The translations under genes and the position numbers were made by a program. A stretch of 64,000 bases of DNA, taken from the NCBI GenBank assembly GCA_038212275.1, contig JBBQUR010000008.1, positions 1 to 64,000 on the forward strand, given 5' to 3'. Positions 45,664-60,572 of the stretch are shown piece after piece (the stretch's first letter is position 1; every line of letters begins with the position of its first letter). Under the pieces are notes generated by a model. It made no database searches. It was not told the DNA's origin and worked only from the letters and a program-made list of their open reading frames with translations. The DNA comes from Planctomycetota bacterium. Lineage in GTDB: Bacteria; Planctomycetota; B15-G4.

Positions 45664-46620
45664 ATGGCATTGCATTCGATGAGCACGACCGAGATCCGCC
45701 GCGAGCTGGAGCGTCGCGAGGCCGGCGCGAAGAAGCTGCTGGATCAGCACGCCTGGCTGTCGACGCGCCTGGCCGAACTGGCGACGAAGCTCGATGAGCT
45801 TGGCGAGGCGGCGGACCGTCCCGCGCGCCGCGGCCGCAAGCCCGGTCGTTCGAAGGGCGGCGCCTCCGCGTCGGCCGGCAGCACGGGCAAGGCGCCGTCG
45901 GGCGGCAAGCGCGCGAAGAATTCGATGAGCCTCGTCGATGCCGTGAGCAAGGTCGTGGCCGCAGGCCGCACCGTCTCCCCCGCCGACGTGCTGGCCTCGG
46001 TGAAGTCGATTTACAAGTCCACCAGCAAGAACCTCGGCATGATGGTCGCGAACACGCTGGCCAAGCATCCTGAGTTCAAGCGCCTCGGTCGCGGACAGTA
46101 CCAGCGCCTCGTCGGCAAGGCTCAGCCGGCCGCCGCAGCGAAGAGTGCCGCGAAGCCGGCGAAGAAGGCACAATCGGCAACGAAGCCAAAGCGCGCGAAG
46201 GTCGCAAAGGTCGCAAAGGTCGCAAAGGTCGCAAGGGTCGCAAGGGTCGCAAAGGTCGCAAAGGTCGCAAGGGTCGCAAACGTCGCGAAGGTCGCGAAGG
46301 TCGCGAAGCAGGCACCCAAGGGCGGCAAGGCCACGTCGGCGAAGAAGGCCGACACGCCGAAGGCGGCCCGTGCCGCGCAGCCCGCGAAGCCCGCAAAGCC
46401 CGCGAAGACGAGCGGACCGGCGAAGGCGACAAAAGCAGCGAAGACCGGCAATCCGCCCCGCAAGGCGAAGGCGGCGAAGAAGACCCGCTCGAACAAGAAG
46501 CCGCGGGCAGGCAAGTCAGCGCCGAAGTCCACGCCGGCGACGTCCGCCGCGTCGACAAGCGTGGCCGTGAAGCCGGCACTTTCGGCGGCCACACCGAAGC
46601 TGCTCGACATCTCCACCTGA
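45664..46620 (+). CDS. Highly basic nucleoid-associated protein candidate (coiled coil + wHTH-like + H1-like tail)
   Basis: STTEIRRELERR coiled coil, RRGRKPGR, KNSMSLVDAV..YKSTSKN..FKRLGRGQY, long K/A/P tail; GAGG RBS. Confidence 0.75.
   Translation: MALHSMSTTEIRRELERREAGAKKLLDQHAWLSTRLAELATKLDELGEAADRPARRGRKPGRSKGGASASAGSTGKAPSGGKRAKNSMSLVDAVSKVVAAGRTVSPADVLASVKSIYKSTSKNLGMMVANTLAKHPEFKRLGRGQYQRLVGKAQPAAAAKSAAKPAKKAQSATKPKRAKVAKVAKVAKVARVARVAKVAKVARVANVAKVAKVAKQAPKGGKATSAKKADTPKAARAAQPAKPAKPAKTSGPAKATKAAKTGNPPRKAKAAKKTRSNKKPRAGKSAPKSTPATSAASTSVAVKPALSAATPKLLDIST
46195..46308 (+). repeat. 9-bp tandem repeat GC[AG]A[AG]GGTC (~12 copies) encoding (AKV/ARV)n
   Basis: Directly visible. Confidence 0.9.
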
Positions 46621-46756: not shown

Positions 46757-48082
46757 TCAGCTTCCGATGACTTCCTTCAGGCCGTTGGAAGCGGACACGC
46801 CATGCGCTGCCTGCGGGTCGGCGGCGAAAACCTGGTGGTACAGCTCCAGTCCGACGAGGTTGGGCTGAGTCGGGACGACGAACTGCATCGTCGCGTCGCC
46901 AGCGCCGGCACCGACGCCGGGCAGCGCGAACGCCAGCGGCACGAAGAGCGCGCCCGACGGATCCACGAGCAAGGACGCGCCCTTGAGCTTGGCGGCGCCC
47001 CGCGGCAGCGAGCCCGTTCCGATGAACATCACGGCCGGCGCGCCGCCGACGAAGTCCAGCAGCTCGAAGCCGACGGTCTGGCCGCCGCACGGCGAGAAGA
47101 TCGCGCGGAACTTCGGCGTCAGCCCGCCACTGCCCGGCTCGCCCTGGCCGTACATGCTGAAGCGGCCGGTGCACGTCGTCACGTCCTCGGGCGCGGACAC
47201 GCCGTCGAGTTCGCCGATCGCCGGGTCGCTGAAGATGACCGTCATGTTGCCGAGGGCATCGATGCGCACGACCTTGCCGGGCCGCCCCGACACGATGAGT
47301 CCGCCGGAGCGCGAGAGTTTGATGTCGTTCGGGTTGTGGATCTTGTCCGGGTCGGCCGGCACGAAGATGTCGCCCTCGCCGGTGTCGATGCGGAAGCGGG
47401 CGATCGTCGACGTGCCGTAGTTGGCGAGGAAGAGATTGCCCGCGCCGTCCAGCGCGAGGCCGCCGGGCTGCGAGATGAAGTCGGCATCCGAGAAGAGCGT
47501 GGCGTGTCCCTGCGCATCGATGCGGATGATCGTGTCGTCGCCGAGGTTCGCGACGAAGAGATTGCCCGCATCGTCGTAGGCCATGCCGTCCGGGATGTTC
47601 AGCAGTCCGTCGGTGGACACCGCGTCGTGCATGAGCACCTGACTGCCGTCGTAGCCGATACGCAGGATCATGCTGGCCGCCATGTCCGACACGACGAAGG
47701 CCCGTCCATCGGGCGACGGGATGCACGTGACCGGCATCTGCAGGTGGCCGCCGCTGCTGAGCACCGAGCGCGTGCCGTCCGGCGCGATCTTCATGATGGC
47801 CACGAAGCCGCGATCGGGCACGTAGAAGTTGCCGTCGGGAGCAACCCAGCCGTAGTGCGGAATGTCCATCGGGTGCGCCCACGCGGCGCCGACGCCCGTC
47901 TCGCCGTCCACGCGCCAGATGGCGCCGACGCTCGGCGCGGACAGCAGCAGGTCCTTGGGGCCGAGCTGTGCGCCGGCGCCCTGAGCATCGGCGCCCTGGG
48001 CGCCAAGAGTTGCCGCCATCAGGCCGGCAAGGATCGGGACACCGCAGGCACGAAGGCCGACACGACACGAAGTGAACTGCAT
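46757..48082 (-). CDS. Secreted NHL/SMP-30-like beta-propeller with the shared C-terminal module
   Basis: Signal peptide; PDGMAYDDAGNLFVAN and PGGLALDGAGNLFLAN repeats; C-terminal YHQVFAADP..SASNGL. Confidence 0.8.
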   Translation of the reverse strand: MQFTSCRVGLRACGVPILAGLMAATLGAQGADAQGAGAQLGPKDLLLSAPSVGAIWRVDGETGVGAAWAHPMDIPHYGWVAPDGNFYVPDRGFVAIMKIAPDGTRSVLSSGGHLQMPVTCIPSPDGRAFVVSDMAASMILRIGYDGSQVLMHDAVSTDGLLNIPDGMAYDDAGNLFVANLGDDTIIRIDAQGHATLFSDADFISQPGGLALDGAGNLFLANYGTSTIARFRIDTGEGDIFVPADPDKIHNPNDIKLSRSGGLIVSGRPGKVVRIDALGNMTVIFSDPAIGELDGVSAPEDVTTCTGRFSMYGQGEPGSGGLTPKFRAIFSPCGGQTVGFELLDFVGGAPAVMFIGTGSLPRGAAKLKGASLLVDPSGALFVPLAFALPGVGAGAGDATMQFVVPTQPNLVGLELYHQVFAADPQAAHGVSASNGLKEVIGS

Positions 48083-48211
48083 GACAGCATTCTCCCGGGA
48101 CTGGTGAGCAGGCGTCGGACAGGCGCGCAAGCGGGCCACCCGTCGACGACGACACGGGTTCTCACCGGGAGCGCACCGCGGGCGTCACACGCCCGTCGAC
48201 GCGGAGCCGCC

Positions 48212-48550
48212 TCAGTGCAGCACCAGCCAGAGCAGGATGCAGATCACGAGCAGCAGGCACACGGCGGCCACCTGCCGCTTGCGCAGCGCAGCGCGTGAGG
48301 GGCGACGGTCGTCGCTCAGGCCTTCGTTCCGCAGAAAGTCCTCGTAGTCGGCCTGCTCGTCGCCGTCTTCTTCGTCTTCTTCGTCGTCGTCACCTGTCGC
48401 GCCGTATCCGACGGGCAGGTCTCCCGCCCAGGCCTCGGCGTCCTCCGACCAGCCGCTCTGCGCGTCCGAGCCGCATGCGGCGCACGCGAGCGCTCCCGAA
48501 GCGACCTGCGCTCCGCAATGCGGGCAAGGGAAGGTCCTGCGTCGTCTCAA
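48212..48550 (-). CDS. Small zinc-ribbon protein with acidic linker and C-terminal TM
   Basis: CPHCG..ACAACGSD..GWSE, DYEDFL; TTG start overlapping the upstream TGA. Confidence 0.7.
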   Translation of the reverse strand: MRRRRTFPCPHCGAQVASGALACAACGSDAQSGWSEDAEAWAGDLPVGYGATGDDDEEDEEDGDEQADYEDFLRNEGLSDDRRPSRAALRKRQVAAVCLLLVICILLWLVLH

Positions 48551-49146
48551 CAGGTCTCGTGCTTCCAGTGGCGGCGCTTGCCGGCGGCCATCCACTCCAT
48601 GGCCTGCGCGATGCGGCGGGCGCGCGTCTCGTCGCGCCTGGCCTCGGCAATCCACTCGAGGTACTCGCGCTGGCAGCTCGGAGGAAAGCCGTCGAAGCAT
48701 GCACGCGCCTTCTTGTTCCCGGCGAACGCGGCCTTCAGCTCGGGGTGCATCGGCAGCGCCTTCTTCGGCAGCGTCTTGCCGCGCTTCACAGCGATGCCCT
48801 CGTCATTGAGCTTCGCGGCCTTCCTGAGGTAGCCGACGAGCACCTTCTTCGAGGGCAGGTCGGACAGCGTCTTCAGGCTGCCGAAACTTCCCATCGCCTC
48901 GCGCGCCTTGCCGTCGTCTCCCACGACGAGCGCGTGCTTCCAGAAGCCGAAGGCGGCGTGCTGCTTGAAGGCGGCCATGTGGCAGAAGGGGCCCTTGTAC
49001 TCGAAGGCGGGCATGCTCCACTTCACGGTCTCGACGACGTCCGGGCACGCCGCGTGCACCAGCTCGCGCAGGTGCCGCAGGATCGGCTGCGCGAAGGGCG
49101 CGGCCTTGCTGATGTAGGTGTCGACGCGCTTGTCCCGGCTTCCCAT
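48547..49146 (-). CDS. YdeI/OmpD-associated family protein (DUF1801)
   Basis: FAQPILRHLR, ETVKWSMP, AAFKQH..FGFW, REYLEWIAEARRDETR. Confidence 0.9.
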   Translation of the reverse strand: MGSRDKRVDTYISKAAPFAQPILRHLRELVHAACPDVVETVKWSMPAFEYKGPFCHMAAFKQHAAFGFWKHALVVGDDGKAREAMGSFGSLKTLSDLPSKKVLVGYLRKAAKLNDEGIAVKRGKTLPKKALPMHPELKAAFAGNKKARACFDGFPPSCQREYLEWIAEARRDETRARRIAQAMEWMAAGKRRHWKHETC

Positions 49147-49164
49147 GAACGATCCTCCCCGAGT

Positions 49165-50187
49165 TCAGCCGCGCAGGTGCGCGAGCACGTGTTCCACTTC
49201 CGCGGTGCTGCCGAGGATCACCGGCGTGCGCTGGTGAATGGCCGTGGGCTGCACGTCGAGGATGCGCTGATCCGGCGCGACGAAGGCGGCGCCGCCGGCC
49301 TGCTCGATGAGCATCGCCATCGGGTTGGCCTCGTACATGAGGCGCAGCTTGCCGGACGGCGACTTCTTCGTCGGCGGGTACATGAAGACGCCGCCCTGCA
49401 GCAGTACGCGGTGCACGTCGCCCACCATCGCGCCGACGTAGCGGCTCGAGTAGCCGTTGCCCTGCGCCCAGGCGAGGTAGCGCTGGTAGCCGTCGGGCAT
49501 CGAGAGCCGGTGACCCTCGTTGACGGAGTAGGTCTTGTTCACGGCCGGAATCCGCAGCTGTCGCTCCACGAGCACGAAGGCGCCGATGGCCGGGTCCAGC
49601 ACGAAGAGGTCCACGCCCGAGCCGAGCGTGAGTGCGAAGAGCGTCGAGGAGCCGTAGATCACGTAGCCCGCCGCCACCTGCTGGCAGCCTGGCTGCAGCA
49701 GCGAGTCCTCCGCGCGCTTCGCGCGCCGGTCGTGCTTCAGGATGCTGAAGATCGTGCCGACGCTCCCGGCGATGTCCAGATTGGACGAGCCGTCCAGCGG
49801 ATCGAACAGCACGCAGTAGCCGCGCGGCCCCTCGGCCAGCTCGCGGATGATGACCGGCTCGTCGTTCTCTTCCGAGGCGACGATGGCCACGCCCTCGCGC
49901 CCGCCGAGCGTGCGCAGCAGCACCTCGTTGGCGATGACGTCGAGCTTCTGCTGCTGCTCGCCCTGCACGTTCTCCGCACCCGCGCCGCCGAGAACGTCCT
50001 CGAGCCGTGCCCGACGCACGCGCGACGCGATGATCTTGGCGGAGATGGACAGCGCCGAGAGAATCCACGACAGGGTGCCTGTCGCCTCCGGATGCGTGGC
50101 CTGCTGCTGCAGGATGTGCCCCTGCAGCGTGACGATCTGGCCGTAGCGGCCTGCCAGCGCGGAAGCCTGGTCCGGGGCGGCGCTCAT
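49165..50187 (-). CDS. fbp: Class 1 fructose-1,6-bisphosphatase
   Basis: NVQGEQQQKLDVIAN, ASEE, FDPLDGSSN, RYVGAMVGDVHR, GKLRLMYEANP. Confidence 0.95.
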   Translation of the reverse strand: MSAAPDQASALAGRYGQIVTLQGHILQQQATHPEATGTLSWILSALSISAKIIASRVRRARLEDVLGGAGAENVQGEQQQKLDVIANEVLLRTLGGREGVAIVASEENDEPVIIRELAEGPRGYCVLFDPLDGSSNLDIAGSVGTIFSILKHDRRAKRAEDSLLQPGCQQVAAGYVIYGSSTLFALTLGSGVDLFVLDPAIGAFVLVERQLRIPAVNKTYSVNEGHRLSMPDGYQRYLAWAQGNGYSSRYVGAMVGDVHRVLLQGGVFMYPPTKKSPSGKLRLMYEANPMAMLIEQAGGAAFVAPDQRILDVQPTAIHQRTPVILGSTAEVEHVLAHLRG

Positions 50188-50356
50188 GCGAGGACTCCGT
50201 GAAAGGTGCGGGACGAGGCCTGTCTGCCTGACCGATGCGGTGCACACCCCGCTGCCGGAGATCGGTCGCGCAGGTTCTCGCACACTCCGGCGAGGTGGGC
50301 AACACCAGCGTCACGACCCGGCCCGCGCGAACGCCTCCACCCGGCGCGCCTCCACC

Positions 50357-50902
50357 TCACTTCGGCTTGCGGAAGCGCCACAGCATCCAGGTGACGACGG
50401 CCATCATCGCGAACAGGTAGGCGCCCATCAGCGGAAGGAAGGGCGTCGAGAGGTCGGGCGCCGCGACGGCGCCCGACCCGCTCGCGTCGCCTCCCGTGCC
50501 GCGCGCGATCTCGGCATTCAGCGCGAAGAGACCCTGAAAAATCACGAGCAGGAGCAGCAGCGTCGTGCATCCGATGGCCAGCAGCCCGGAGGCCATGTGC
50601 GCCAGGGACTCCGCGCGATGCGGCGGCGCGAGCCAGTAGTCCTTGTGCGGCAGGTTGATGAGGGCGTCGGGGATCTTCTCCAGCAGCAGCGGCAGCACGA
50701 GGAACATGCCGGCCATGAACACGTCCAGCCCGAGCGTCACCGCGAGGAACTCCGTGCGGGACATCCAGCCGTTCACGCGGTTGTCGAGGTCGAAGTGCGA
50801 GGCGATCCGCTCGGGGAGCTGCGGCCACCAGTAGGCGACCTGCACGAAGAGCGCCAGCGCGAGCAGGCACATCAACAGGGTCAGCACGCGTTTCAGGGGC
50901 AT
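50357..50902 (-). CDS. DUF1648 membrane protein
   Basis: LPERIASHF..NGW, INLPHKDYW. Confidence 0.8.
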   Translation of the reverse strand: MPLKRVLTLLMCLLALALFVQVAYWWPQLPERIASHFDLDNRVNGWMSRTEFLAVTLGLDVFMAGMFLVLPLLLEKIPDALINLPHKDYWLAPPHRAESLAHMASGLLAIGCTTLLLLLVIFQGLFALNAEIARGTGGDASGSGAVAAPDLSTPFLPLMGAYLFAMMAVVTWMLWRFRKPK

Positions 50903-50912
50903 CGGGCCCGGC

Positions 50913-51233
50913 CTACAGGGTCACGGGTTCGAAGTGCGGGAACATCTCCGCGGATTCGGCGAGATCCGAGAGCTTCACGCAATCGCTGAGTGCGAAGAAG
51001 CGGCTCCAGATCGCCTGCACGCCGACATTGTGGTGCGCCGCCGCCACGGCCTCCTCGGACTTCCACTCGAAGAGTTCGAGCAGCGTGCCGTCGCCTGCGC
51101 GCAGCACGACGGAAGGCCGATCCGTCGCCAGCCCCTCCTTGCGCAGCGCGGGCAGGTGGTCTCGGACGCAGTTCAGCAGCGCCGCATCCTGGCCGGGCTT
51201 CGGGCGATAACACGCGATGACGAGATGACCCAT
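50913..51233 (-). CDS. Conserved hypothetical protein (dimeric alpha/beta-barrel-like)
   Basis: VIACYRPKPG, H.PALR..GLATDRP, ELFEWKS, AH.N..VQ.IW. Confidence 0.7.
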   Translation of the reverse strand: MGHLVIACYRPKPGQDAALLNCVRDHLPALRKEGLATDRPSVVLRAGDGTLLELFEWKSEEAVAAAHHNVGVQAIWSRFFALSDCVKLSDLAESAEMFPHFEPVTL

Positions 51234-51336
51234 GGCAGCACATCCTCCCGGGAGAGGCCTGCGCGGGCTCGGGCGACATCGACCCGGCGGCAGGCGGACC
51301 TGCGCGACATGATGCGTGCTGCCGCGCTCCCGATCC

Positions 51337-52932
51337 ATGGCGGGACGGCGACCCCCGGCAGTACCATCCGCCGCCGTGCCTGCCGCCCTGCTCGCCATCC
51401 TCCTCGCGTGCTGCACCGCCACCGCGTCCGCGGCGGCCGCCTCACTGCAGGCGCCGGTCGGCACACCGGCGGTCGGCACATCGGCGGACGTGCTCGTCTG
51501 GGGCGGCGATGCCGAGGGCGGCGCGCCCTACGTCGAAGCCGATGCGGACGACCCGACGAAGGTCGTGGGCTTCGACGTGGAGATCGCGGAGCTCATCGCG
51601 CGACAGTCGGGGCGCACTGCGCAGTTCCTGCAGGTGGCCTACGCGAGCCTCGACCAGTCCGCGCAGCGCGGCGATTTCGAACTCGCGCTCAGCGGCATCG
51701 AGGACATCCCTTCACGGCGCGCGGAGCTCGCGGCCAGCATTCCTTACTACGAGTTCCGTGAAGTCCTCACCGTGCGCGAGGCCGACCGCGACCGCTTCGG
51801 AACGCTGGCCGACCTGCGCGGCAGACGCGTGGCGACGCTCGGCGGCACGCTCGCCTACGACCTGCTGCTGCAGGCCGAGGACAGCTGCGGACTGACGGCC
51901 GTCTCCTACGACGACGACGTGCACCCCTACTCGGACCTCCTGCTCGGGCGCGTGGATGCCGTGCTGCTCGACAACGTCCTGGCCGAGCGTGCCATGCGCC
52001 GCGACGAAGGCCTGTTCACCCAGCCCGGATCCGTGGCCACCGGCCACTACATCATCATCTCGGCGAAGGCCAACGCGGAGCGCATGGCCCGGGTGGACGA
52101 CATCCTGCGCGCCGCGATGGCCGACGGCACTCTGGAGACGATCTTCCGCAAGTGGAAGTCGTGGAATGACGACCAGAGCCCGCTGTACGCGCGACTGCTC
52201 GCCGGCTCGGAGACGGGCGCGGGCACTGGCACCAGTCCGTCCGCGACGGGCGGTCCCGGCGGACTTGACGGCGCCGCCGCACGCACGAGCGCCGTCGCGT
52301 GGCGCTATCTGCCGTCGCTGCTGCGCGCGGCGGCGATCACGCTGCTGCTCTCGTGCGCGGCGATGGCGCTGGCGATCGCGCTCGGCGTGGCCATCGCCAT
52401 CGGCCGCGTCTACGGCGGCCCGGTGGTGCGCGTGCTGCTCGCGACCTACGTCGAGGTGATGCGCGGCACACCGGTGCTGCTGCAACTCTTCGTGATCTAC
52501 TACGGGGCCGCATCGGTCGTGAGACTGCCGGCCTCTCTCGCGGCGCTGCTGGGGCTCGGCCTCAACTACGCCGCCTACGAGAGCGAGATCTATCGCAGCG
52601 CGCTGTCGGCGGTGCCGCGCGGGCAGCTCGAAGCGGCCGCCAGCCTCGGCTTCACCCGCGCACAGACGCTGCGGCTGATCCGCGCGCCGCAGGCCTTCCG
52701 CTTCGCGCTCGCGCCGATGACCAACGACTTCGTCGCGATGCTCAAGGACTCCTCGCTGGTCTCCGTGCTCACCGTCGTGGAGCTCACCAAGCAGACGCAG
52801 ATCTACGCCACCAACGTGGGCAGCTGGGTGCTGCCGGGCCTGCTCTGCGCGGCGCTCTACCTCGCGATGTCGCTGCCCCTCGGGCAGCTTGCGCGCCGGC
52901 TGGAAGCGCGCTGGAAGGCTCCCGGCGCATGA
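51337..52932 (+). CDS. Polar amino-acid ABC transporter, fused substrate-binding + permease
   Basis: WGGDAEGGAPY, GFDVEIA, RGTPVLLQL, NYAAYESEIYR, GQLEAA, LKDSSL. Confidence 0.92.
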   Translation: MAGRRPPAVPSAAVPAALLAILLACCTATASAAAASLQAPVGTPAVGTSADVLVWGGDAEGGAPYVEADADDPTKVVGFDVEIAELIARQSGRTAQFLQVAYASLDQSAQRGDFELALSGIEDIPSRRAELAASIPYYEFREVLTVREADRDRFGTLADLRGRRVATLGGTLAYDLLLQAEDSCGLTAVSYDDDVHPYSDLLLGRVDAVLLDNVLAERAMRRDEGLFTQPGSVATGHYIIISAKANAERMARVDDILRAAMADGTLETIFRKWKSWNDDQSPLYARLLAGSETGAGTGTSPSATGGPGGLDGAAARTSAVAWRYLPSLLRAAAITLLLSCAAMALAIALGVAIAIGRVYGGPVVRVLLATYVEVMRGTPVLLQLFVIYYGAASVVRLPASLAALLGLGLNYAAYESEIYRSALSAVPRGQLEAAASLGFTRAQTLRLIRAPQAFRFALAPMTNDFVAMLKDSSLVSVLTVVELTKQTQIYATNVGSWVLPGLLCAALYLAMSLPLGQLARRLEARWKAPGA

Positions 52933-53630
52933 GTCCCGTCCTGCACGTTGCCGGCCTGAGGCTCCGCCGCGGCGGGCGCGAGATTCTCCGCGGCGTGGAC
53001 CTGACCGCCGACACGGGCGAGGTCGTCGCGCTCATGGGGCTCTCGGGCTCCGGCAAGACGACGATCCTGCGCGTCATCGCGGGCCTGGAGCCGGCCGACG
53101 CGGGCGACGTCCGCTGCGGCAAGGCCGGCATGGTCTTCCAGTTCCACTGCCTGTTCGAGCATCTCCCGGCGTTGGACAACGTGATGCTCGCGCCGCTGCA
53201 CGTGCAGCGCACGCCGCGCGACGAGGCCGAGCGGCGCGCGCGGCAGCTGCTGGAACAACTCGGCGTCGGCCACCGCGCCGGGGCGCTGCCGCGCGAACTC
53301 TCGGGCGGAGAGGCGCAGCGGGTCTCCATCGCCCGCGCGCTCGCCGTGGACCCGGCGCTGCTGCTGCTCGACGAGCCCACCGCCTCCCTGGACCCCGCGC
53401 GCCGGAACGACCTCGGCGACGCGCTGGCCGCCCTCGCCGCGGCGGGCCGCACGCTGGTGCTGACCTCGCATGACGCCGACTTCGTGGCAGCGCACGCCAC
53501 GCGCGTGCTCATCCTGAGCGAAGGCCGGGTCGTCGAGCAGGGCGACCCGCGCGAAGTCCTCGTCCGGCCGCAGCACGCGGCCACGCGCGAGCTGCTTCAG
53601 TTGGAGCGAGACAGGGCCCGCTCGTGGTAG
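52929..53630 (+). CDS. Amino-acid ABC transporter ATP-binding protein
   Basis: GLSGSGKT, LSGGEAQR, LLLDEPT; ATGA overlap. Confidence 0.92.
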   Translation: MSPVLHVAGLRLRRGGREILRGVDLTADTGEVVALMGLSGSGKTTILRVIAGLEPADAGDVRCGKAGMVFQFHCLFEHLPALDNVMLAPLHVQRTPRDEAERRARQLLEQLGVGHRAGALPRELSGGEAQRVSIARALAVDPALLLLDEPTASLDPARRNDLGDALAALAAAGRTLVLTSHDADFVAAHATRVLILSEGRVVEQGDPREVLVRPQHAATRELLQLERDRARSW

Positions 53631-53734
53631 CGTGCGTGCGCCGTCGACGGCGCGCGTGATCCCCCGACCGCGCGCCTCCCCCACGCCGCTGCGATGTCCC
53701 GCATCGGCGCGATGGCATGCGCCGGCGCTTTGAC

Positions 53735-56700
53735 ATGCACCGGCGCGACACTCCCGCATCGGCGCTGGCTCCAGCGTCGGCGCCGCAGCCAGCATCGAGG
53801 AGAGACAGCTTGTCGTTCGCCTTATCCGGCCCGGTCCATCGGGCCGGCGCCCGCTTTCGTCCTGCCGCATCGAATTCCCTGCTGCGAAAGCCTCCTGCGC
53901 AGACAGCGGCGCCGCGCGGCGCCGTGCTCGCCGCCATCACGACGCTTGCCGCGATGCTCGTGCCGGCGACGCGGGCCGCCGCGCAAGTGCCCGCGACCGT
54001 GGACGCGCTGGTCGGCCAACTGGCCACCAAGGCGCATCTGTCCGGCAAGAAGGACCAGCCGGAGAACTTCGACGTGTTCCGGCTGGGCTGGTCGCTGTGG
54101 GACACCAACGAACTGGCTGCCGGCTACCAGGGCGCGATCGCGGAGCTGGTCAAGTCGGCCACTGCGGCCGGTCCGAGCATGTCGCAGCATTACCTTGACG
54201 TTGACGCGATGGTGCCTTGCTCGCTGCCCTATCTGGATGCCGGCGGCGCGATCCACCCGCAGATGAAGGCCTTCTACGACGTGGTGATGAACTCGTCCTT
54301 CTCGCGCTTCGACATGCCCGGCGACCTCGCGCCGGCCCTCGGCACGCCGGGCATCAACCTGCTCGCCATCCAGGACACGGTCTTCTCGCCGGTGCGCGAC
54401 CCCGCAACCGGCGTGGTGACGACGTGGACGTATCCAGGCCTCGCCGGGCTCGTCGCGCAACTGCCGCCCGCCACCGCATGGCCCGGCATGCGCCTCATCC
54501 AGAACATCGGCTTCGCGAACAATCCCGGCTTCCCGGTCGGCGATTACGACTACGCCTTCGAGCACCCGCTGCTCACCAAGCCCGGCACGCCCGAGCCCGT
54601 GTCCGGCACCGATGCGCTGGCAGTCTACGTGCAGTCCGACATCGTGGACGACAAGCTCGACGGCAGCGGCAACGTGATCGATCCGGGCGTGATCACCAAG
54701 CTCTTCTACTACCTGCCGCTGAGCATGCTGCACCCGGATGTCGCCGCGCTGCTGGCGCAGTCGATCCGCGAGCGCGTCACGGCCACTCCCGACGGCTACG
54801 CCTCGTCGTTCAGCGTGGGCGGCGAGTTCTCGTTCGCAGTGCCGATCAAGGCGGCGTGGCCGGTCGGCTGCACGCCGGTGGACACGCCCTGCGACCAGCC
54901 GCCCGGCGCCTCGGCCGTCGACACCTATTACTGCCACCTGCCCGACAGCGACTACTCCGTGTATTCGCTCGATCACTTCCGGAGCTGGTTGCAGGATCGC
55001 TACGGCACGCTCGCGGCTCTGAGGACCGCATGGAATGCCGCGATTCCCGCGGTCTGCACGAGCATCGTGGCCTGCCCGAAGGTGAGTCCGCTGGCGGCCG
55101 TCGCCTACCAGCCGCTCGGCGCCGGGCCGGTGTCCTGGTCGACCATCCTCGCCGACTGGAACGAGTTCCAGGCCGCGCAGCTCAGCGCGGCGCGCGTCTT
55201 CCAGTACGTGGCGGCCAAGCAGGAACGGCCGCTGCAGTCGATGCGCCTGTATGAGAGCGATCCGCGCGGCGCCGACGAGGCGGCGCAGCTGTCCGACGGC
55301 GTGTCGCTCAGCACCTTCCTGCCCCCGACGACGCCGCTTGGCGAACTGCCGTCGCGCCTGAAGAAGGTCGCGCTGCACGGCGCCTCGTACGGCGAGCCGG
55401 CGGACTTTCCGCTGTTCGGCATGAAGCAGGACCTCGCCGCGGGCTTCTCGGGCGGATCGGCCGACTGGCCCACGGCGTTCCTGCCCGCCACCTTCCACGA
55501 GAACCACGCGCGCCGCATGCTCGGCGAGTTCCTCACGCTGGGCGTGAATGCCGTGGGACTCGCCTACTTCGAAGCCATCGGCAACTGGAACATCAAGGAC
55601 GGCGTGTTCACGCACGACTGCCCCGCACTGCCCGGCAAGCAGGACCTGAACATGGCGCAGTGCCTCGGCGCGGAGGTGGACGCGCTGCAGGACCCTCTCG
55701 CCTTCATGACGCCATGGCGCTCGCCGCTGCTGATCCACACCGGCTCGTGGGCCGGCAAGCTGACCAACGCCGACATCTACGACTCCTACACGGCGGCGCC
55801 GATCTCCTCGCTGATGACGGTGCTCGCCGACGAGCAGGTGCAGTTCGCACCCTTCACGCGGGACGACGGCTTCGACGACCTGTGGCTGCCCTCCACGCGC
55901 CAGGTGCTGCTCGTGCCTTTCCTGCCCGAGCTCGACAAGCCCCGGCTGCGCGACTACCAGGACTTCGCCGCCTCGCACCAGATGCACCTGCTGCTGCTCA
56001 TCGACGCAGCCAAGGAAGCCGCGCTGAGCATGCCGGTCTGCTACACCCTCAGCTCGCCGGGCGCCGACTATCACGTCGCGTTCACGCCCGTGCCCTTCCA
56101 GGCCGATTGCCTGACGCCACTCGTGCACGCCGCCATCGTCTACCACGGGACCGCCAAGGACGCCTCGTACGAGATGCTGCGCGCCTCGATCCAGCTGGCG
56201 GACGTGCTCGTCACGCGTCCGCTGCGGCCCGTGCGCGCCGAGTCGAGTCCCGGCGTGCTCGCGCACGGCGTGGACGTGACCGTCGCGACCGACGGCCTGA
56301 ACCTGCTCGCCTGCGCCACCAACACGCGGCCGAAGCCGCAGAGCTTCACGCTGGTCCCGGCCGTGCCCGGGTTCACCTACAGCATTCCCGACGGCGCGAC
56401 GCCCGCGGCTCCGCTGGCGCAGAGCGAGTCGATGCTGCGCTACCTGAAGGCCGACCTCCCGCCGAACGCGATCCCGTCGCTGGCGACGTCCCTCGATGCG
56501 GCCGTCGGCCAGGCCGGCGCCCGGCTGACCAACCTCGCCAGCGTGGCGCCGATTTTCGACACGGCTGCGGCGGAGCAGCTCCTGCTGCGGCTGCGCAACC
56601 TGTCGACGCAGACCGAACCGGAGAAAGTCCTCGCCGGCCTGGTGCGCCTGCAGCGCATGCCTTTCCTCCGCGTGGAGGGAAAGCCCGGCAACACCGTGCT

Positions 56701-56980
56701 GGTCTCCGTCGTGGCGCTCGATCGCACGCCGATCGGCGGCGCGCCGGTGCAGCTCGAGTTCGTCCTGCAGCGCCACGCGCGCCGCAACGGCGTCACGTCC
56801 CGGGGCAACGGCCCGAATGATCCCGGCGTGGGCAAGGTGCTGCTCTCCATCGCGCAGCCTGCGGACACGATCTGGGACTTCACGATTCCGGGCAAGTCGG
56901 TGCCTGCCGGCAACCTCGTCGAGGTGCAGGTGCAGCATCCGCAGAGCTTCAGTCAGTCGAAGCTGCTCTTCGTTCCCTGA
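53735..56980 (+). CDS. Large secreted protein, distant GH42/clan GH-A-like
   Basis: Signal ending RAAA-Q; DYS....HFRSWLQDRYGTLAALRTAW and ADWNEFQ motifs; start uncertain (53717-53924). Confidence 0.6.
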   Translation: MHRRDTPASALAPASAPQPASRRDSLSFALSGPVHRAGARFRPAASNSLLRKPPAQTAAPRGAVLAAITTLAAMLVPATRAAAQVPATVDALVGQLATKAHLSGKKDQPENFDVFRLGWSLWDTNELAAGYQGAIAELVKSATAAGPSMSQHYLDVDAMVPCSLPYLDAGGAIHPQMKAFYDVVMNSSFSRFDMPGDLAPALGTPGINLLAIQDTVFSPVRDPATGVVTTWTYPGLAGLVAQLPPATAWPGMRLIQNIGFANNPGFPVGDYDYAFEHPLLTKPGTPEPVSGTDALAVYVQSDIVDDKLDGSGNVIDPGVITKLFYYLPLSMLHPDVAALLAQSIRERVTATPDGYASSFSVGGEFSFAVPIKAAWPVGCTPVDTPCDQPPGASAVDTYYCHLPDSDYSVYSLDHFRSWLQDRYGTLAALRTAWNAAIPAVCTSIVACPKVSPLAAVAYQPLGAGPVSWSTILADWNEFQAAQLSAARVFQYVAAKQERPLQSMRLYESDPRGADEAAQLSDGVSLSTFLPPTTPLGELPSRLKKVALHGASYGEPADFPLFGMKQDLAAGFSGGSADWPTAFLPATFHENHARRMLGEFLTLGVNAVGLAYFEAIGNWNIKDGVFTHDCPALPGKQDLNMAQCLGAEVDALQDPLAFMTPWRSPLLIHTGSWAGKLTNADIYDSYTAAPISSLMTVLADEQVQFAPFTRDDGFDDLWLPSTRQVLLVPFLPELDKPRLRDYQDFAASHQMHLLLLIDAAKEAALSMPVCYTLSSPGADYHVAFTPVPFQADCLTPLVHAAIVYHGTAKDASYEMLRASIQLADVLVTRPLRPVRAESSPGVLAHGVDVTVATDGLNLLACATNTRPKPQSFTLVPAVPGFTYSIPDGATPAAPLAQSESMLRYLKADLPPNAIPSLATSLDAAVGQAGARLTNLASVAPIFDTAAAEQLLLRLRNLSTQTEPEKVLAGLVRLQRMPFLRVEGKPGNTVLVSVVALDRTPIGGAPVQLEFVLQRHARRNGVTSRGNGPNDPGVGKVLLSIAQPADTIWDFTIPGKSVPAGNLVEVQVQHPQSFSQSKLLFVP

Positions 56981-58401
56981 GCGCCCGGCTCGCGGGCGCG
57001 GAAGACGGGCCCGCTGGATCCGGGCCCGCGATCTGCGCGGCCGCGAACCTGCCAGGCATGCAGCAGCGTGGCGGCGGCCAGCAGCAGCGCCAGCGCGATG
57101 GCCTCCTCGCGTGAGGTGTGCGCGAGCAACCAGCAGAGGATGCCGATCGCGAGCAGCGGAATAAGCGGGCCGAAGGGCAGGCGGAAGGGCGGCGCCGCCA
57201 GGCGCACGTGCCGCGCGCGCAGGCGCAGCGTCGCGGCGCACACCGAAAGGTAGATCAGGATGCCCGTGCCCGCCGAGAAGACGGCGAGCTGTTCGAAGGC
57301 GCCCGTCACGGAGAAGAGAGCGGCAAGCGCGGTGTAGACCAAGATGGCCACGTGCGGCGTGCGGAAGCGGCCGTGAACGCGCGCCAGCGGCGCGGGCAGC
57401 AGGCCGTCGCGCGCGGCGGCGAAGAGCGTGCGCGGCGAAGCGAGCAGGTCGCCCGCGATGATGCCGGCCATGGACACCAGCGCGCCGACGAGCACGATCG
57501 TGCCGCCGGTCTCGCCAAAGACGGCGCGCGCGGCCGCCGCGAGAGGCGCTGCGGTCTCCTCGGCGAGCTGCGGCCCGAGCACGCCCTGCGACACGAACTG
57601 CAGCCCCGCGTAGAGCGCGACGACACCGAGCGCGCCGCCGAGCAGCCCGCGCGGCACGGTGCGGGTGGAGTCCCTGATTTCGCCGCTCGCGACGAGCGCC
57701 ACCTCGCCGCCCGCGAACGCGAAGAAGAGCACGAGCGAGGCGCTGCCGACGGCCCCCACCGGCGGCCAGGCCGTGAAGGCGAGCGGCCCGGCGCGCACGA
57801 CGAAGACTCCGACGCCGACGAGCGCGAGCAGTGGCAGCAGCTTGAGCACCGTCATGGCCTGCGCCAGGCGCGCGCCCTGCCGCACGCCGCGCACGTTGAC
57901 CACGGCGAGCGCTCCGAAGAAGGCCAGCAGCAGCGCGACGCGGGCGCCGGCTCCGCGCAGCGCGGGCACCGCCGCCGCAAGCCCGTCGTAGAGCGCGTTG
58001 GCAATGGCCGCGTCTCCCAGCACGCCGAAGCCGAACCACATGAGCGTGCCGACCAGGAAACCGGGCAGCGACCCGAACGCCGCCTCGACGTAGGCGTAGC
58101 CTCCGCCCGAGCGCTCCACGCGGCTCCCCGCCTCCGCGTAGCAGAGCAGCACGAGCAGGATGGCCGTCCCGCACACGGCGTAGGCGATCCACGCCATCGC
58201 GCCGAGCTGCGCGGCCACGAGCCCTGGCAGCGCAAAGATCCCGGCGCCGATGATGAGATTGGCCACGTTGCTCGCGAGCGCCATCGGCCCCATCGCGCGG
58301 ACGAGGCCCTCGTCGGTGGGCGCGGTGGGCGCGGTGGGCGCGGTGGGCGCGGCGGCGGACTCGGGCGGAGCAGGAGCGGGCAAGACAGCTCTCCGCGTCA
58401 C
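56953..58401 (-). CDS. APC family amino-acid permease
   Basis: IIGAGIFALP, CYAEAGSR..SGGGYAY, FFAFAGGE, PR.LFA.ARDG.LP, RFRTPHVAI; start uncertain. Confidence 0.9.
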   Translation of the reverse strand: MTRRAVLPAPAPPESAAAPTAPTAPTAPTDEGLVRAMGPMALASNVANLIIGAGIFALPGLVAAQLGAMAWIAYAVCGTAILLVLLCYAEAGSRVERSGGGYAYVEAAFGSLPGFLVGTLMWFGFGVLGDAAIANALYDGLAAAVPALRGAGARVALLLAFFGALAVVNVRGVRQGARLAQAMTVLKLLPLLALVGVGVFVVRAGPLAFTAWPPVGAVGSASLVLFFAFAGGEVALVASGEIRDSTRTVPRGLLGGALGVVALYAGLQFVSQGVLGPQLAEETAAPLAAAARAVFGETGGTIVLVGALVSMAGIIAGDLLASPRTLFAAARDGLLPAPLARVHGRFRTPHVAILVYTALAALFSVTGAFEQLAVFSAGTGILIYLSVCAATLRLRARHVRLAAPPFRLPFGPLIPLLAIGILCWLLAHTSREEAIALALLLAAATLLHAWQVRGRADRGPGSSGPVFRAREPGAQGTKSSFD

Positions 58402-58552
58402 GGCAGGGGCGTTCCCGACTCGCGATGCCCGATCACGCCCGGTGCACGCACTCGAGCCGGAACGCTCGCACGATGCGCGCGACGAGGCACCCGTTCAAGG
58501 GCGGGGCTGGTGCGGCATGCGGGAAGTCCGCGGCAAGGGGACGGCGAAAAGG

Positions 58553-58593
58553 GGCGGCATGCGCGGAGTGTCCGTGACTCCGCGCATGCCGTC
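58553..58593. terminator. Hairpin downstream of the choice-of-anchor L gene
   Basis: GGCGGCATGCGCGGAGT-GTCCGTG-ACTCCGCGCATGCCGTC. Confidence 0.55.
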
Positions 58594-58637
58594 AGGTGTC
58601 GATCACGCGGTGGCTCCTGCCGCCGCCCGGTCCGCGC

Positions 58638-60245
58638 TCAGGAGGTCACGCCGCGGAGGGCGTTGCTGGCGGCGTAGCCCTTGATTGCGGTCGAGTCCTG
58701 GATCCAGAACTGGAAGTAGAGCGAGGCGCCTGCCGGAACGCCCGCGGGGAAGAGGAACGGAAGACTGACGTTGCCGGTCGGCCCCGTGATCAGCGGAAGG
58801 ATGAGCAGCGGATCCGGAACCAGCACGCCGCCCTTGAACGGCGCGTTGAGCTGCGTGATGCCGAACATCAGCGCGGCGTTGGCCGACGCGTGGGCGTCCG
58901 ACACCTCGAGTGACGCGTCGTTGCCGCCGAAGAGCGCGCCATGTCCCGTGAGCGCCGGCAGGCCCTTGATGCCGGCCGTCGCGTGACCCAGATTCGTCCA
59001 GGTCTGCACGCCGGCGCCGACCTCGATGACCACCTCGCAACTGGTGACCTGGTTGATCTGATCCGTGGCCGTGAAGACGAGGTGATACACGCCCACGTCG
59101 GCGGCGGTGGGCGTCCACTCGAACTCGACCGAGACTTCGGGCGCCGGACCTGCCGGAACCGCCGGCGTGAACACGCCGCCCGCAAGCGGGACGGCATCAC
59201 CCGTGACGTCCACGGTCACGGCCTCTCCGGGCAGGCCGCTGGTCGCCAGGGCGTGCATCTCGAAACGGAACGGGAGGCCGGTCGTCGCCGACAGGATCTG
59301 GCCGCAGGGCGAGGGCGGATCGAAGGCAGGGCCCGGGCTGGCGCACGCGAAGCTCTGTCCGCGGATGAACACGTTGGTGTCGTAGACACCGTCGCCGCGG
59401 TCCGCGACGACGAGCTTGATGTGATTCGGGCCGGGATGCACCGTGCCCGTGGCGGAGAAGACGCTCGTGATGCCGTCCATCTCGGTGGCCAGGGCATTGC
59501 ACGGGTATCCCAGGCCCATCGAGTCGCAGTCGTTCGTCGTGTAGAGCGGGCAGTTGGGTCCGCCACCCGGCACCCACGGGTTGCCGCAGTTCACGTTGTT
59601 GATCGCGACGGGCGTGGTCGTGTTCGGGATGAGCGCGATGTTCTGCCCGTTGAGGAAGAACGCGAACACGTCGTTGTACTGGGTGTCCACCCACTCGTCG
59701 AACTCCTCCGAGGAGAAGACGTACTGAAAGGAGACGACGCTCGTGTTCGGGCACTCGAAGTCGAACTCGAGCACGCAGGCATCCTGCGTCAGGCCGGCCA
59801 CGAGACCGTCGAGGTCCGGGTCGCCGGGCCAGGCGTTGTCCGTGCTGGTGGAGCCGATGAGATTCTGTGGTCCCACGACTGAGGCGATGTCGCCGGAGCT
59901 GAGCACGACGCCCTGCGCGAAGCCGACGATGCCGGTGCCGCCCGAGAAGGTGCCGGCAGCCACAGGGGCTCCGTTGAACTGGATGTTGGTGACCGGCACG
60001 CCGGCGCCGATGAGCGCCGCGACCAGGCTGGCCGCATTCTGGCCGCCCGTCGCCATGTCCTGAGTGACGAGGCCCGCCGCCACGGCCTGCTGAGTCTGCG
60101 GAACCCTGAAGGACCCGCCACGCGGCAGCACCAGGCGTTGCTGCGCTGCAGCCAGGGACGTGAGGGCGCATGCGGCCAGCACGACAGCCGAGACACGTGT
60201 CGTGAGTCGACGAGCAGAGGCGTGAACTCCTTGCGCGGAAGACAT
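58638..60245 (-). CDS. Secreted choice-of-anchor L domain protein + Ig-like domain + shared C-terminal module
   Basis: Signal peptide; GVVLSSG, GDPDL, DACVLEFDF, YVFSSEE, YNDVFAFFLNG.NIALIP, INNVN, ADRGD..YD; C-terminal YFQFWIQD..AASNAL. Confidence 0.85.
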   Translation of the reverse strand: MSSAQGVHASARRLTTRVSAVVLAACALTSLAAAQQRLVLPRGGSFRVPQTQQAVAAGLVTQDMATGGQNAASLVAALIGAGVPVTNIQFNGAPVAAGTFSGGTGIVGFAQGVVLSSGDIASVVGPQNLIGSTSTDNAWPGDPDLDGLVAGLTQDACVLEFDFECPNTSVVSFQYVFSSEEFDEWVDTQYNDVFAFFLNGQNIALIPNTTTPVAINNVNCGNPWVPGGGPNCPLYTTNDCDSMGLGYPCNALATEMDGITSVFSATGTVHPGPNHIKLVVADRGDGVYDTNVFIRGQSFACASPGPAFDPPSPCGQILSATTGLPFRFEMHALATSGLPGEAVTVDVTGDAVPLAGGVFTPAVPAGPAPEVSVEFEWTPTAADVGVYHLVFTATDQINQVTSCEVVIEVGAGVQTWTNLGHATAGIKGLPALTGHGALFGGNDASLEVSDAHASANAALMFGITQLNAPFKGGVLVPDPLLILPLITGPTGNVSLPFLFPAGVPAGASLYFQFWIQDSTAIKGYAASNALRGVTS

Positions 60246-60572
60246 GATGAACTCCGTTGAGGGATGGCCGGCAGCCGGGATGGACTCTCCCGGTGAAGCG
60301 CCAGCTGGGTGTGCAACGTGCCGATTGCAAATCCCGCGCCGATGCGCGCGGCGCTCCCCCTCGGCGGCACGCACGGGCCGCGAGGGGCTCGGCCCGGTCG
60401 GGGCGTGACCCTTCGGTCATGCCGGCCGGCCTTGTCCGCAGTTGCGTGCGCACAGGTCCGCCCCGGATCCGTGCACGACGGAGGGAGCCGCCCGGCGGCC
60501 CGATGTCGTAGCCTGTGCCGCCCGCGCGGAACAACCGATCGCGGCCCGCCACCGGAGAGAGCACTCAGGCCG

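Follow-up and report, generated by a model that had tools for sequence, protein, structure and literature searches.

Two exported proteins with unrelated bodies, encoded on the minus strand of a 64,000-nucleotide stretch of Planctomycetota bacterium DNA (contig JBBQUR010000008.1, positions 1 to 64,000; hereafter referred to as the window), end in copies of the same module of about 120 residues. One is a beta-propeller protein (protein A, 46757..48082) and the other is a choice-of-anchor L protein (protein B, 58638..60245). The tail is best explained as one of the copy types that make up a hitherto undescribed superfamily of immunoglobulin (Ig)-like beta-sandwich domains, each ~120 residues long and borne by varied proteins exported by the Sec route. 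The domain has a confidently predicted fold and matches no named family. It is present in more than 100 proteins of this genome, almost always at the very C-terminus, on cargo of great diversity, and it occurs in particular lineages of the phylum. We infer that the module is an envelope-targeting tag, for docking or sorting, and we assign to this reading as a whole a probability of about 0.55.

According to this reading, the cargo would first be exported across the inner membrane by Sec. The folded domain would then bind a common receptor, either a protein or a glycan, in the outer envelope, and this binding would bring or hold varied cargo (enzymes, adhesin-like repeats and cytochromes) at the outer membrane or the cell surface. 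The module resembles a sorting or anchoring tag in its behaviour, because it is found as a single terminal copy on varied exported cargo, occupies the slot in which alternative anchors are found, drifts rapidly in sequence over a firm fold and is present clade by clade.

Relationship between the two tails

Aligned directly, the tails of A and B display 29% identity over 106 residues (BLASTP E 5e-5, a single comparison), and module A is 27% identical to module B in alignment A1. In a phmmer search of the 29,233 stop-to-stop open reading frames (ORFs) of the genome with module B, ORF A was obtained at an E-value of 0.51, which is not significant, and the pairwise likeness is therefore marginal on its own. 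By contrast, a profile iterated from the tail of B over the genome ORFs (119 positions) firmly joined A (E 6.4e-21) and B (E 6.9e-43) in one family. The preliminary description of the window, made from the sequence alone, had proposed that the two proteins share an alignable terminal module of ~120 amino acids (aa); the family profile bears this out, and its envelopes (46769-47164 and 58647-59003) agree with the coordinates given at that time. The same description had the module following signal peptides and unrelated bodies, with no transmembrane anchor. Both proteins do have N-terminal hydrophobic segments, and no C-terminal membrane helix was found in A or B in a Kyte-Doolittle (KD) hydropathy scan (KD19>1.6); apart from the N-terminal segments, the sole window above this value was a borderline one within the module of A.

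Abundance and position of the module in the genome

The genome assembly comprises 4.65 Mb in 40 contigs, with an estimated completeness of 91.1% and a contamination of 1.1%. The profile, a hidden Markov model, matched 139 ORFs at E<1e-3, and 136 of these had a domain at an independent E<1e-5, corresponding to a tag on roughly one gene per 34 kb. Each ORF carried one significant copy, and one of the 136 was a 90-aa fragment. The position of the module was highly constrained: in 132 of the 136 ORFs, a distance of 0-12 residues separated the end of the envelope from the stop, and in 110 of these the distance was 2 or 3 residues. The final residue was a proline in 86 of the 132 terminal copies, and lay exactly 5 residues after an SNxL motif in 74, this motif being absent from 33 (regular expression). 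The majority consensus of 135 aligned copies was W..LG.GL.G..G.P.L.G.G.L..G....L.L..A.....A.L..G......PFKGG.LVP.P......L.T...G.L.LP...P.G.P.G.....Q....D..A..G...SN.L....P, with Gln102 invariant and Gly81 and Pro90 nearly so. In the numbering of module B, Lys61, Asp107 and Asn118 show no variation in the 12-copy alignment A2. Average-linkage clustering did not separate these copies into subfamilies; they form a continuum.

The same bias was found elsewhere, with 82 of 84 domains at 80 loci from other genomes being C-terminal, as were 149 of the 150 best representatives in a public library, which ended within 12 residues of the end of the protein (the exception lies at residues 29-152). Thus, the abundance and C-terminal position that the preliminary description had envisaged from two copies hold across the genome and beyond it. 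Extreme C-terminal bias, with a fixed short tail, across a set of unrelated bodies that exceeds 100 substrates in each genome would also suit a true C-terminal secretion signal. Such a signal would be read by a dedicated outer-membrane translocon that lets the cargo through and, as in the type IX secretion system (T9SS), would afterwards be removed by cleavage or replaced with an anchor. We consider this explanation doubtful, on the evidence of position and machinery presented below.

Cargo proteins and signal peptides

All 136 ORFs were scanned with Pfam at 1e-5. No family was found in 52 of them, FG-GAP-type repeats were present in 34, and none of the best Pfam stretches listed lay inside the module. 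The other bodies included propellers (WD40, NHL/SGL, Kelch and PD40), beta-helices, DUF7948, CHRD, Laminin_B, DUF642 and GSDH domains, and an ice-binding-like protein. Enzymes were represented by lamin-tail proteins with an endonuclease/exonuclease/phosphatase domain (two), sulfatases (two), a phosphoesterase, a phytase-like protein and peptidases of families S8, M10 (three) and M12. A di-haem cytochrome c peroxidase also bears the module, as does a multihaem MtrC/MtrF-like cytochrome with nine CXXCH motifs and a Big_9 domain (contig C25, 40935-43475; L067:6665-9205). This cytochrome has an ordinary signal peptide with no lipobox, and no further haem protein was found among its neighbours.

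Export was assessed with a rule of our own, requiring a positive n-region, an 11-residue uncharged hydrophobic core and an AXA-like site, applied to start codons close to where third-position GC becomes high. Under this crude rule, signal-peptide-like starts were enriched, as the preliminary description would have it, with 79 of the 136 module ORFs scoring positive versus 339 of 1531 control ORFs. It replaced an earlier, looser rule that was uninformative, as 600 of the 1531 controls passed. The current rule undercalls, because many of the 57 "negatives", including B, display leaders of the ...AxAQ type by eye; B was missed because the starts tested lay elsewhere.

The range of cargo bears on two alternatives. 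Many bodies are adhesin-like repeats or hydrolases, as would be the case if the module were a general non-catalytic binding module (a lectin, carbohydrate-binding module (CBM) or adhesin-like domain) fixing proteins to an external substrate with no sorting role. However, CBMs are not normally joined to cytochromes, peroxidases, nucleases and propellers alike, nor are they normally present as one copy at the last residues of more than 95% of their carriers, and we consider this explanation unlikely. The module might otherwise act as an aid to folding or stability (an intramolecular chaperone, a protease-resistant cap or a PPC-like pro-domain) with no targeting role. It is C-terminal on many secreted enzymes, and the proline ending 86 of the 132 tails could shield them against C-terminal proteolysis. 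Nevertheless, the bodies span dozens of unrelated folds, which fold elsewhere without such a domain, making a stability aid very improbable.

Comparison with known families and predicted structure

The 135 module copies were each scanned singly against Pfam and NCBIfam at E<=1. All E-values were weak: at most one copy matched any given Pfam family (best E 0.0021), and at most two any given NCBIfam family; the tails of A and B themselves yielded no match. The models for the T9SS C-terminal domain (CTD; TIGR04183/PF18962 and TIGR04131) matched 0 of the 135 copies, and there was no match to dockerin type I (PF00404) or PPC (PF04151), the latter result speaking against a PPC-like stability aid. 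No CBM or lectin family in either database matched any copy, which counts against the binding-module explanation. A profile search of all solved-structure sequences gave a best E-value of only 0.39. Public relatives are named "hypothetical protein" or after their N-terminal domain, precomputed newer Pfam annotations list no family common to them, and the neighbours in the ESM Atlas are unnamed Planctomycetota clusters without Pfam families. In the literature, for which coverage of subscription journals was mostly lacking, no account of a planctomycete domain of this kind was found. The preliminary description, which could assign the module to no named family, is upheld on this point.

An AlphaFold2 model of the module of B, based on the 135-row alignment, had a mean predicted local distance difference test score (pLDDT) of 96.6 and a predicted template modelling score (pTM) of 0.89, with 11 strands and no helix. 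A Foldseek search of the PDB gave nothing at an E-value below 0.001, the best match being PmoD (query-normalised TM 0.49). In an exhaustive VIA-align search, the best Z was 8.1, for Ig and macroglobulin-type domains, a level usual for a common arrangement; of the 548 chains reaching Z>=5, the C-terminal region of PorU (6za2_B) came 28th, with Z 6.7. The module thus has a generic Ig-like sandwich fold, and no solved structure stands out as a specific relative. The likeness to the T9SS CTD suggested in the preliminary description holds for the Ig-like sandwich, a fold that a secretion signal of this type would also have, but the matches are only generic and no T9SS CTD was among the Foldseek rows shown. 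A beta-sandwich is also the form of many CBMs and adhesins, and carbohydrate-binding and adhesin domains are among these generic matches, as the binding-module explanation would predict.

Distribution in Planctomycetota

A profile search of a public library of 1.84 billion representative proteins gave 18,528 matches at E<=0.001, 8,102 at <=1e-10 and 1,351 at <=1e-30. The class to which the window belongs consists of 42 genomes from a single order, and the module was found in all 41 of the genomes searched (permissive threshold), with at least 106 scored matches in each of many of them. In an even sample of the phylum, in which 14 candidates per genome were scored, 58 of 301 Planctomycetota genomes carried the module at 1e-8. 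Presence was all-or-none in the families tallied by name (30 of 98): carrier families had 7/7, 6/6, 2/2, 7/7, 5/5 and 2/2 genomes with the module, and non-carriers 0/15, 0/15, 0/10 and 0/10. In the remaining 68 families, pooled, the module was present in 27 of 187 genomes. A chaperone role would leave this family-wise distribution unexplained.

The titled records with close copies are uncultured Planctomycetota metagenome-assembled genomes. Three records titled otherwise were probed and contained 1, 2 and 142 copies. The copies of the first two lie on one contig each, which fits mis-binning, whereas the third is, given its copy number, a carrier genome whatever its title.

The anchor slot and related tails

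The term "choice-of-anchor" (type A) is used in a preprint for surface proteins bearing one of several alternative anchors (bioRxiv 10.1101/2023.03.06.531300). The argument of the preliminary description that the module of B fills such a slot is supported by a close homologue of its body, P0367, which bears IPTL-CTERM (TIGR04174, 20.5 bits, exactly the NCBIfam cut-off) directly after choice-of-anchor L. The 120 best homologues of the body of B are all choice-of-anchor L proteins, and those with names given are from Planctomycetota. The profile detected the module in 19 of them, always at the C-terminus, and most of the others end in three further recurrent tail types: a cysteine-rich tail with the pattern CPC...YYRD...FNxTN..W.P (hereafter referred to as the YYRD tail), a second with PGC...TDALG...LTLQG...DGLYLxLGN (the LGN tail) and a third with FNP...PLQxSNGL...FTIQ (the FTIQ tail). 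Regular expressions placed 41, 25 and 10 of 113 newly fetched homologues, respectively, in these three types, and more could be placed by eye. Two body homologues end in dockerin-like repeats (motif only).

No Pfam or NCBIfam family was found on any of the three tails. In profile-profile comparisons with the 135-copy alignment, the LGN tail gave a probability of 97.5% (E 5.5e-12, 118 columns), the FTIQ tail 87% (E 4e-6, 75 columns) and the YYRD tail 75% (E 2.5e-5, 118 columns). From these alignments, the LGN tail is clearly related to the module, and the FTIQ and YYRD tails are probable distant relatives. The module is part of a wider superfamily, whose further tail types occur elsewhere in Planctomycetota. 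The preliminary description had termed it lineage-specific, and this is true of its clade-wise presence but not of the superfamily, which extends to other parts of the phylum under other tail types.

The YYRD tail (fuller motif CPC...GC.NS...FGDG.RC...YYRD...FNxTN..W.P, ~148 positions) was found in 8 of the 301 genomes overall and is concentrated in another planctomycete family, where 6 of 7 genomes had it. Within that family, it occurs in genomes G044, G109, G133, G207, G269 and G284, one of which yielded as many as 297 first-look candidates; weaker matches to the module profile were obtained there too. The expansion of a cysteine-rich relative in another family fits an oxidising, extracytoplasmic location.

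In five picked homologues of B, the tail was 52-69% identical and the body 78-88%. Such faster drift of the tail is expected for a tag needing only a fold and a few motifs, as judged from these sequences, and it is compatible with a stability aid too.

Search for a partner machinery

No match to the T9SS CTD type A model (TIGR04183) was found in the whole genome, although the control for this model matched nowhere. SprA (TIGR04189), PorV (NF033710) and PorU (NF033707) gave no match in this 91.1%-complete genome, with weak controls: none of the control genomes contained an SprA match, and the matches for PorV and PorU, in genomes without T9SS, were all below cut-off. There was likewise no match to PEP-CTERM (PF07589), the control for which matched nowhere, or to exosortase (PF09721).

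Of the eight secretin genes in the genome, two belong to a gene cluster on the minus strand of contig C6 (123441-135359; L162:7442-19360), which also contains two ExbD genes and the genes for a TPR/YfiO-like protein and a 942-aa protein belonging to no family. The two secretins are divergent (882 and 1150 aa, the larger one with TPR), and in terms of gene content the cluster looks like a secretin system coupled to a motor driven by the proton-motive force. These genes would provide parts for the secretion-signal explanation, which also gains from a comparable CTD-based route proposed for Akkermansia, another bacterium of the Planctomycetes-Verrucomicrobia-Chlamydiae (PVC) superphylum (PMC13524802).

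The preliminary description saw no machinery in the window and had suggested co-distribution as a way to a partner. Three candidates were profiled in the 301-genome sample and none could be tied to the module as machinery. The GT-C (PMT_2) part of a module-bearing membrane enzyme was detected in 3 of 301 genomes and in 0 of 7 in the family of the window (four candidates scored per genome), and was rejected as conserved machinery. The metallo-beta-lactamase-fold part of another module protein had matches in 14 of 301 genomes, every one a carrier, but was missing from 1/7, 2/6 and 2/2 genomes of the families of the class and from 7/7 of another carrier family; it looks like cargo rather than machinery. 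Finally, the 942-aa protein of the C6 cluster, a single, fast-evolving and thus insensitive query, gave matches in 23 of the 301 genomes (21 carriers), but none in two carrier families (0 of 7 and 0 of 5). Co-distribution profiles have little power here because the carriers are whole clades. With no candidate translocon tied to the module, and no cleavage site or processing peptidase identified for it in these searches, the secretion-signal explanation loses part of its appeal.

A still more far-reaching possibility would be an undescribed planctomycete pathway of outer-membrane secretion and attachment, a counterpart of T9SS built from unrelated parts, with more than 100 substrates in each genome, lineage-specific tag variants and the secretin-ExbD-TPR cluster of C6 as a possible engine. 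The tag variants of such a pathway would be the PFKGG type here and the cysteine-rich CPC...YYRD type in another family. We put this forward tentatively, and think it improbable as a whole.

Copies in other positions and the targeting reading

Several observations weigh against a targeting tag as we have described it. Four of the 136 copies are not C-terminal. On contig C7 (48390-49715; L032), a signal peptide is followed by the module, a proline-rich linker and a metallo-beta-lactamase-fold domain; this architecture recurs in two other genomes (L085:856-2697 and L086:1315-2706), these being the sole non-C-terminal cases among the 84 domains from other genomes. Two adjacent giant proteins on contig C4 (144061-155149; L019), of 1301 and 1771 codons as open frames, have a divergent, cysteine-containing copy after the signal peptide, followed by TIG, malectin, GSDH and Kelch domains. 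On contig C28, the module of one protein precedes another domain, of 173 aa. Besides these four copies, a polytopic PMT_2 (GT-C) membrane protein (contig C20, 72769-75138; L062:4300-6669) ends in a copy joined to it by a long (Gly-Ala)n tether, and an enzyme of this kind cannot leave the inner membrane. Beyond these copies, the signal-peptide rule is crude, with a background of 22% in controls, the fold matches of the model are generic, profile comparisons between kin lack independence, and the search for a receptor, translocon or processing enzyme found none, such that the proposed mechanism is at its core hypothetical.

The exceptional copies argue against a signal requiring a free C-terminus, and a general ligand-binding module, tolerating N-terminal and internal placement, would fit them equally well. 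The existence of N-terminal and internal copies, and of one on an inner-membrane enzyme, shows that the module can function without a free C-terminus and on a protein confined to the inner membrane. The preliminary description had inferred a sorting domain analogous to the T9SS CTD; its abundance, position and association with signal peptides are consistent with this view, whereas these copies misfit a strict C-terminal signal. As the non-C-terminal copies are rare but conserved, and one copy sits on an inner-membrane enzyme, we favour docking or retention over a translocon signal. By analogy with T9SS, the docking and secretion-signal roles can coincide, and an envelope-targeting tag could have both.

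The two genes in the window

The open frame of protein B (58638-60374, minus strand) has a likely start at 60245, giving a gene at 58638..60245 (stop codon 58638-58640) encoding 535 aa, the length of the public collection entry P0152. Its layout is a signal peptide, a choice-of-anchor L domain, an unassigned middle region and the C-terminal module. The probable signal peptide, MSSAQGVHASARRLTTRVSAVVLAACALTSLAAAQQ (60138..60245), was read by eye, with KD windows at residues 14-16. The choice-of-anchor L domain (59349..60026, residues 117-342 of a 578-aa frame) was identified with NF038133 at E 7.7e-70 (234.7 bits versus a cut-off of 27; profile positions 3-219 of 219), and homologues of B have precomputed PF26766 matches and the NCBI name "choice-of-anchor L domain-containing protein". 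No family matched the middle region (59004..59348) in B itself; weak Big_9/He_PIG matches at the equivalent place in homologues suggest that it is probably an Ig-like spacer. The module (58641..59003) is a typical member of the family, with an envelope at residues 472-590 of 592 followed by two tail residues, and is the copy for which the AlphaFold2 model was obtained. In one soil metatranscriptome run, in which 6% of the sampled words were present, the contigs contained only short, diverged pieces of choice-of-anchor L, and none of the module.

Protein A lies in an open frame at 46757-48139 on the minus strand, with a likely ATG start at 48082 and a stop codon at 46757-46759 (441 aa), and consists of a signal peptide, an SGL/NHL beta-propeller and the C-terminal module. 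Its N-terminal hydrophobic segment (KD window at residue 8) reads as a signal peptide of ~27 residues, predicted by our own crude rule (MQFTSCRVGLRACGVPILAGLMAATLG..., 48002..48082; mean hydropathy of the h-region 1.99, cleavage near residue 27). The propeller body (47261..47845, residues 99-293 of a 460-aa frame) resembles SMP-30/gluconolactonase/LRE-like proteins with NHL repeats, and exceeded the curated Pfam cut-offs for both SGL (PF08450, E 5.1e-12, 46.4 bits versus 26.3) and NHL (PF01436, E 1.5e-5, 25.2 bits versus 20). The module (46760..47164) is a divergent member of the family, with an envelope at residues 341-472 of 475 followed by three tail residues.

Adjoining protein A upstream is a Lys/Ala-rich ORF of 318 aa on the plus strand (window 45664-46620), with a run of AKV/ARV repeats (...KVAKVAKVAKVARVARVAKVAKV...), which may be likened by eye to histone-H1-like or AlgP-like basic proteins. 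An ORF of 1087 aa (window 53717-56980, plus strand) lies between ABC transporter and amino-acid permease genes.

Significance and comparison with known systems

The envelope of Planctomycetota is unusual and little is known about how proteins are placed on or beyond it; a tag of the type proposed here would provide a direct handle on this process. For whole lineages that have not been cultured, it would single out the proteins likely to be secreted or on the surface, among them proteases, sulfatases, nucleases and cytochromes of the type used in extracellular electron transfer, and would offer a bait for the receptor or translocon. With a family model, thousands of "hypothetical" proteins would gain a named domain, and the occupant of the choice-of-anchor slot in this phylum would be explained.

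A close parallel is the T9SS CTD of Bacteroidota, also a folded, terminal Ig-like sandwich found in many copies on signal-peptide proteins with unrelated bodies, including in the choice-of-anchor slot. However, there is no sequence match between the two, the module described here is larger (~120 aa, 11 strands) and some of its copies are N-terminal or internal; its likeness to the PorU CTD (6za2_B) is within the generic range. Dockerin modules of cellulosomal enzymes are small, calcium-binding helical domains, present once per protein and mostly at the C-terminus of unrelated secreted enzymes. By analogy, the single, mostly terminal module here would bind a shared surface receptor, but it has another fold, no Pfam match and no cohesin-like partner identified. 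The PEP-CTERM, IPTL-CTERM and LPXTG signals occupy the same anchor slot, as in P0367 with IPTL-CTERM. They are, however, ~25-35 residues long and consist of a motif, a membrane helix and a basic tail, whereas the module is a soluble domain of 120 aa with no helix. Secreted enzymes may also end in the PPC domain (PF04151), another beta-sandwich, to which a helping role in secretion is attributed, but it matched none of the 135 copies, and the range of cargo of the module is far wider. Finally, the last domain of the Akkermansia muciniphila sulfatase Amuc0953 is said to resemble T9SS CTDs, and a comparable system was suggested there (PMC13524802). As in the lineage studied here, the host is a bacterium of the PVC superphylum for which no T9SS is described; the likeness is one of description, and concerns one protein there versus more than 100 here.

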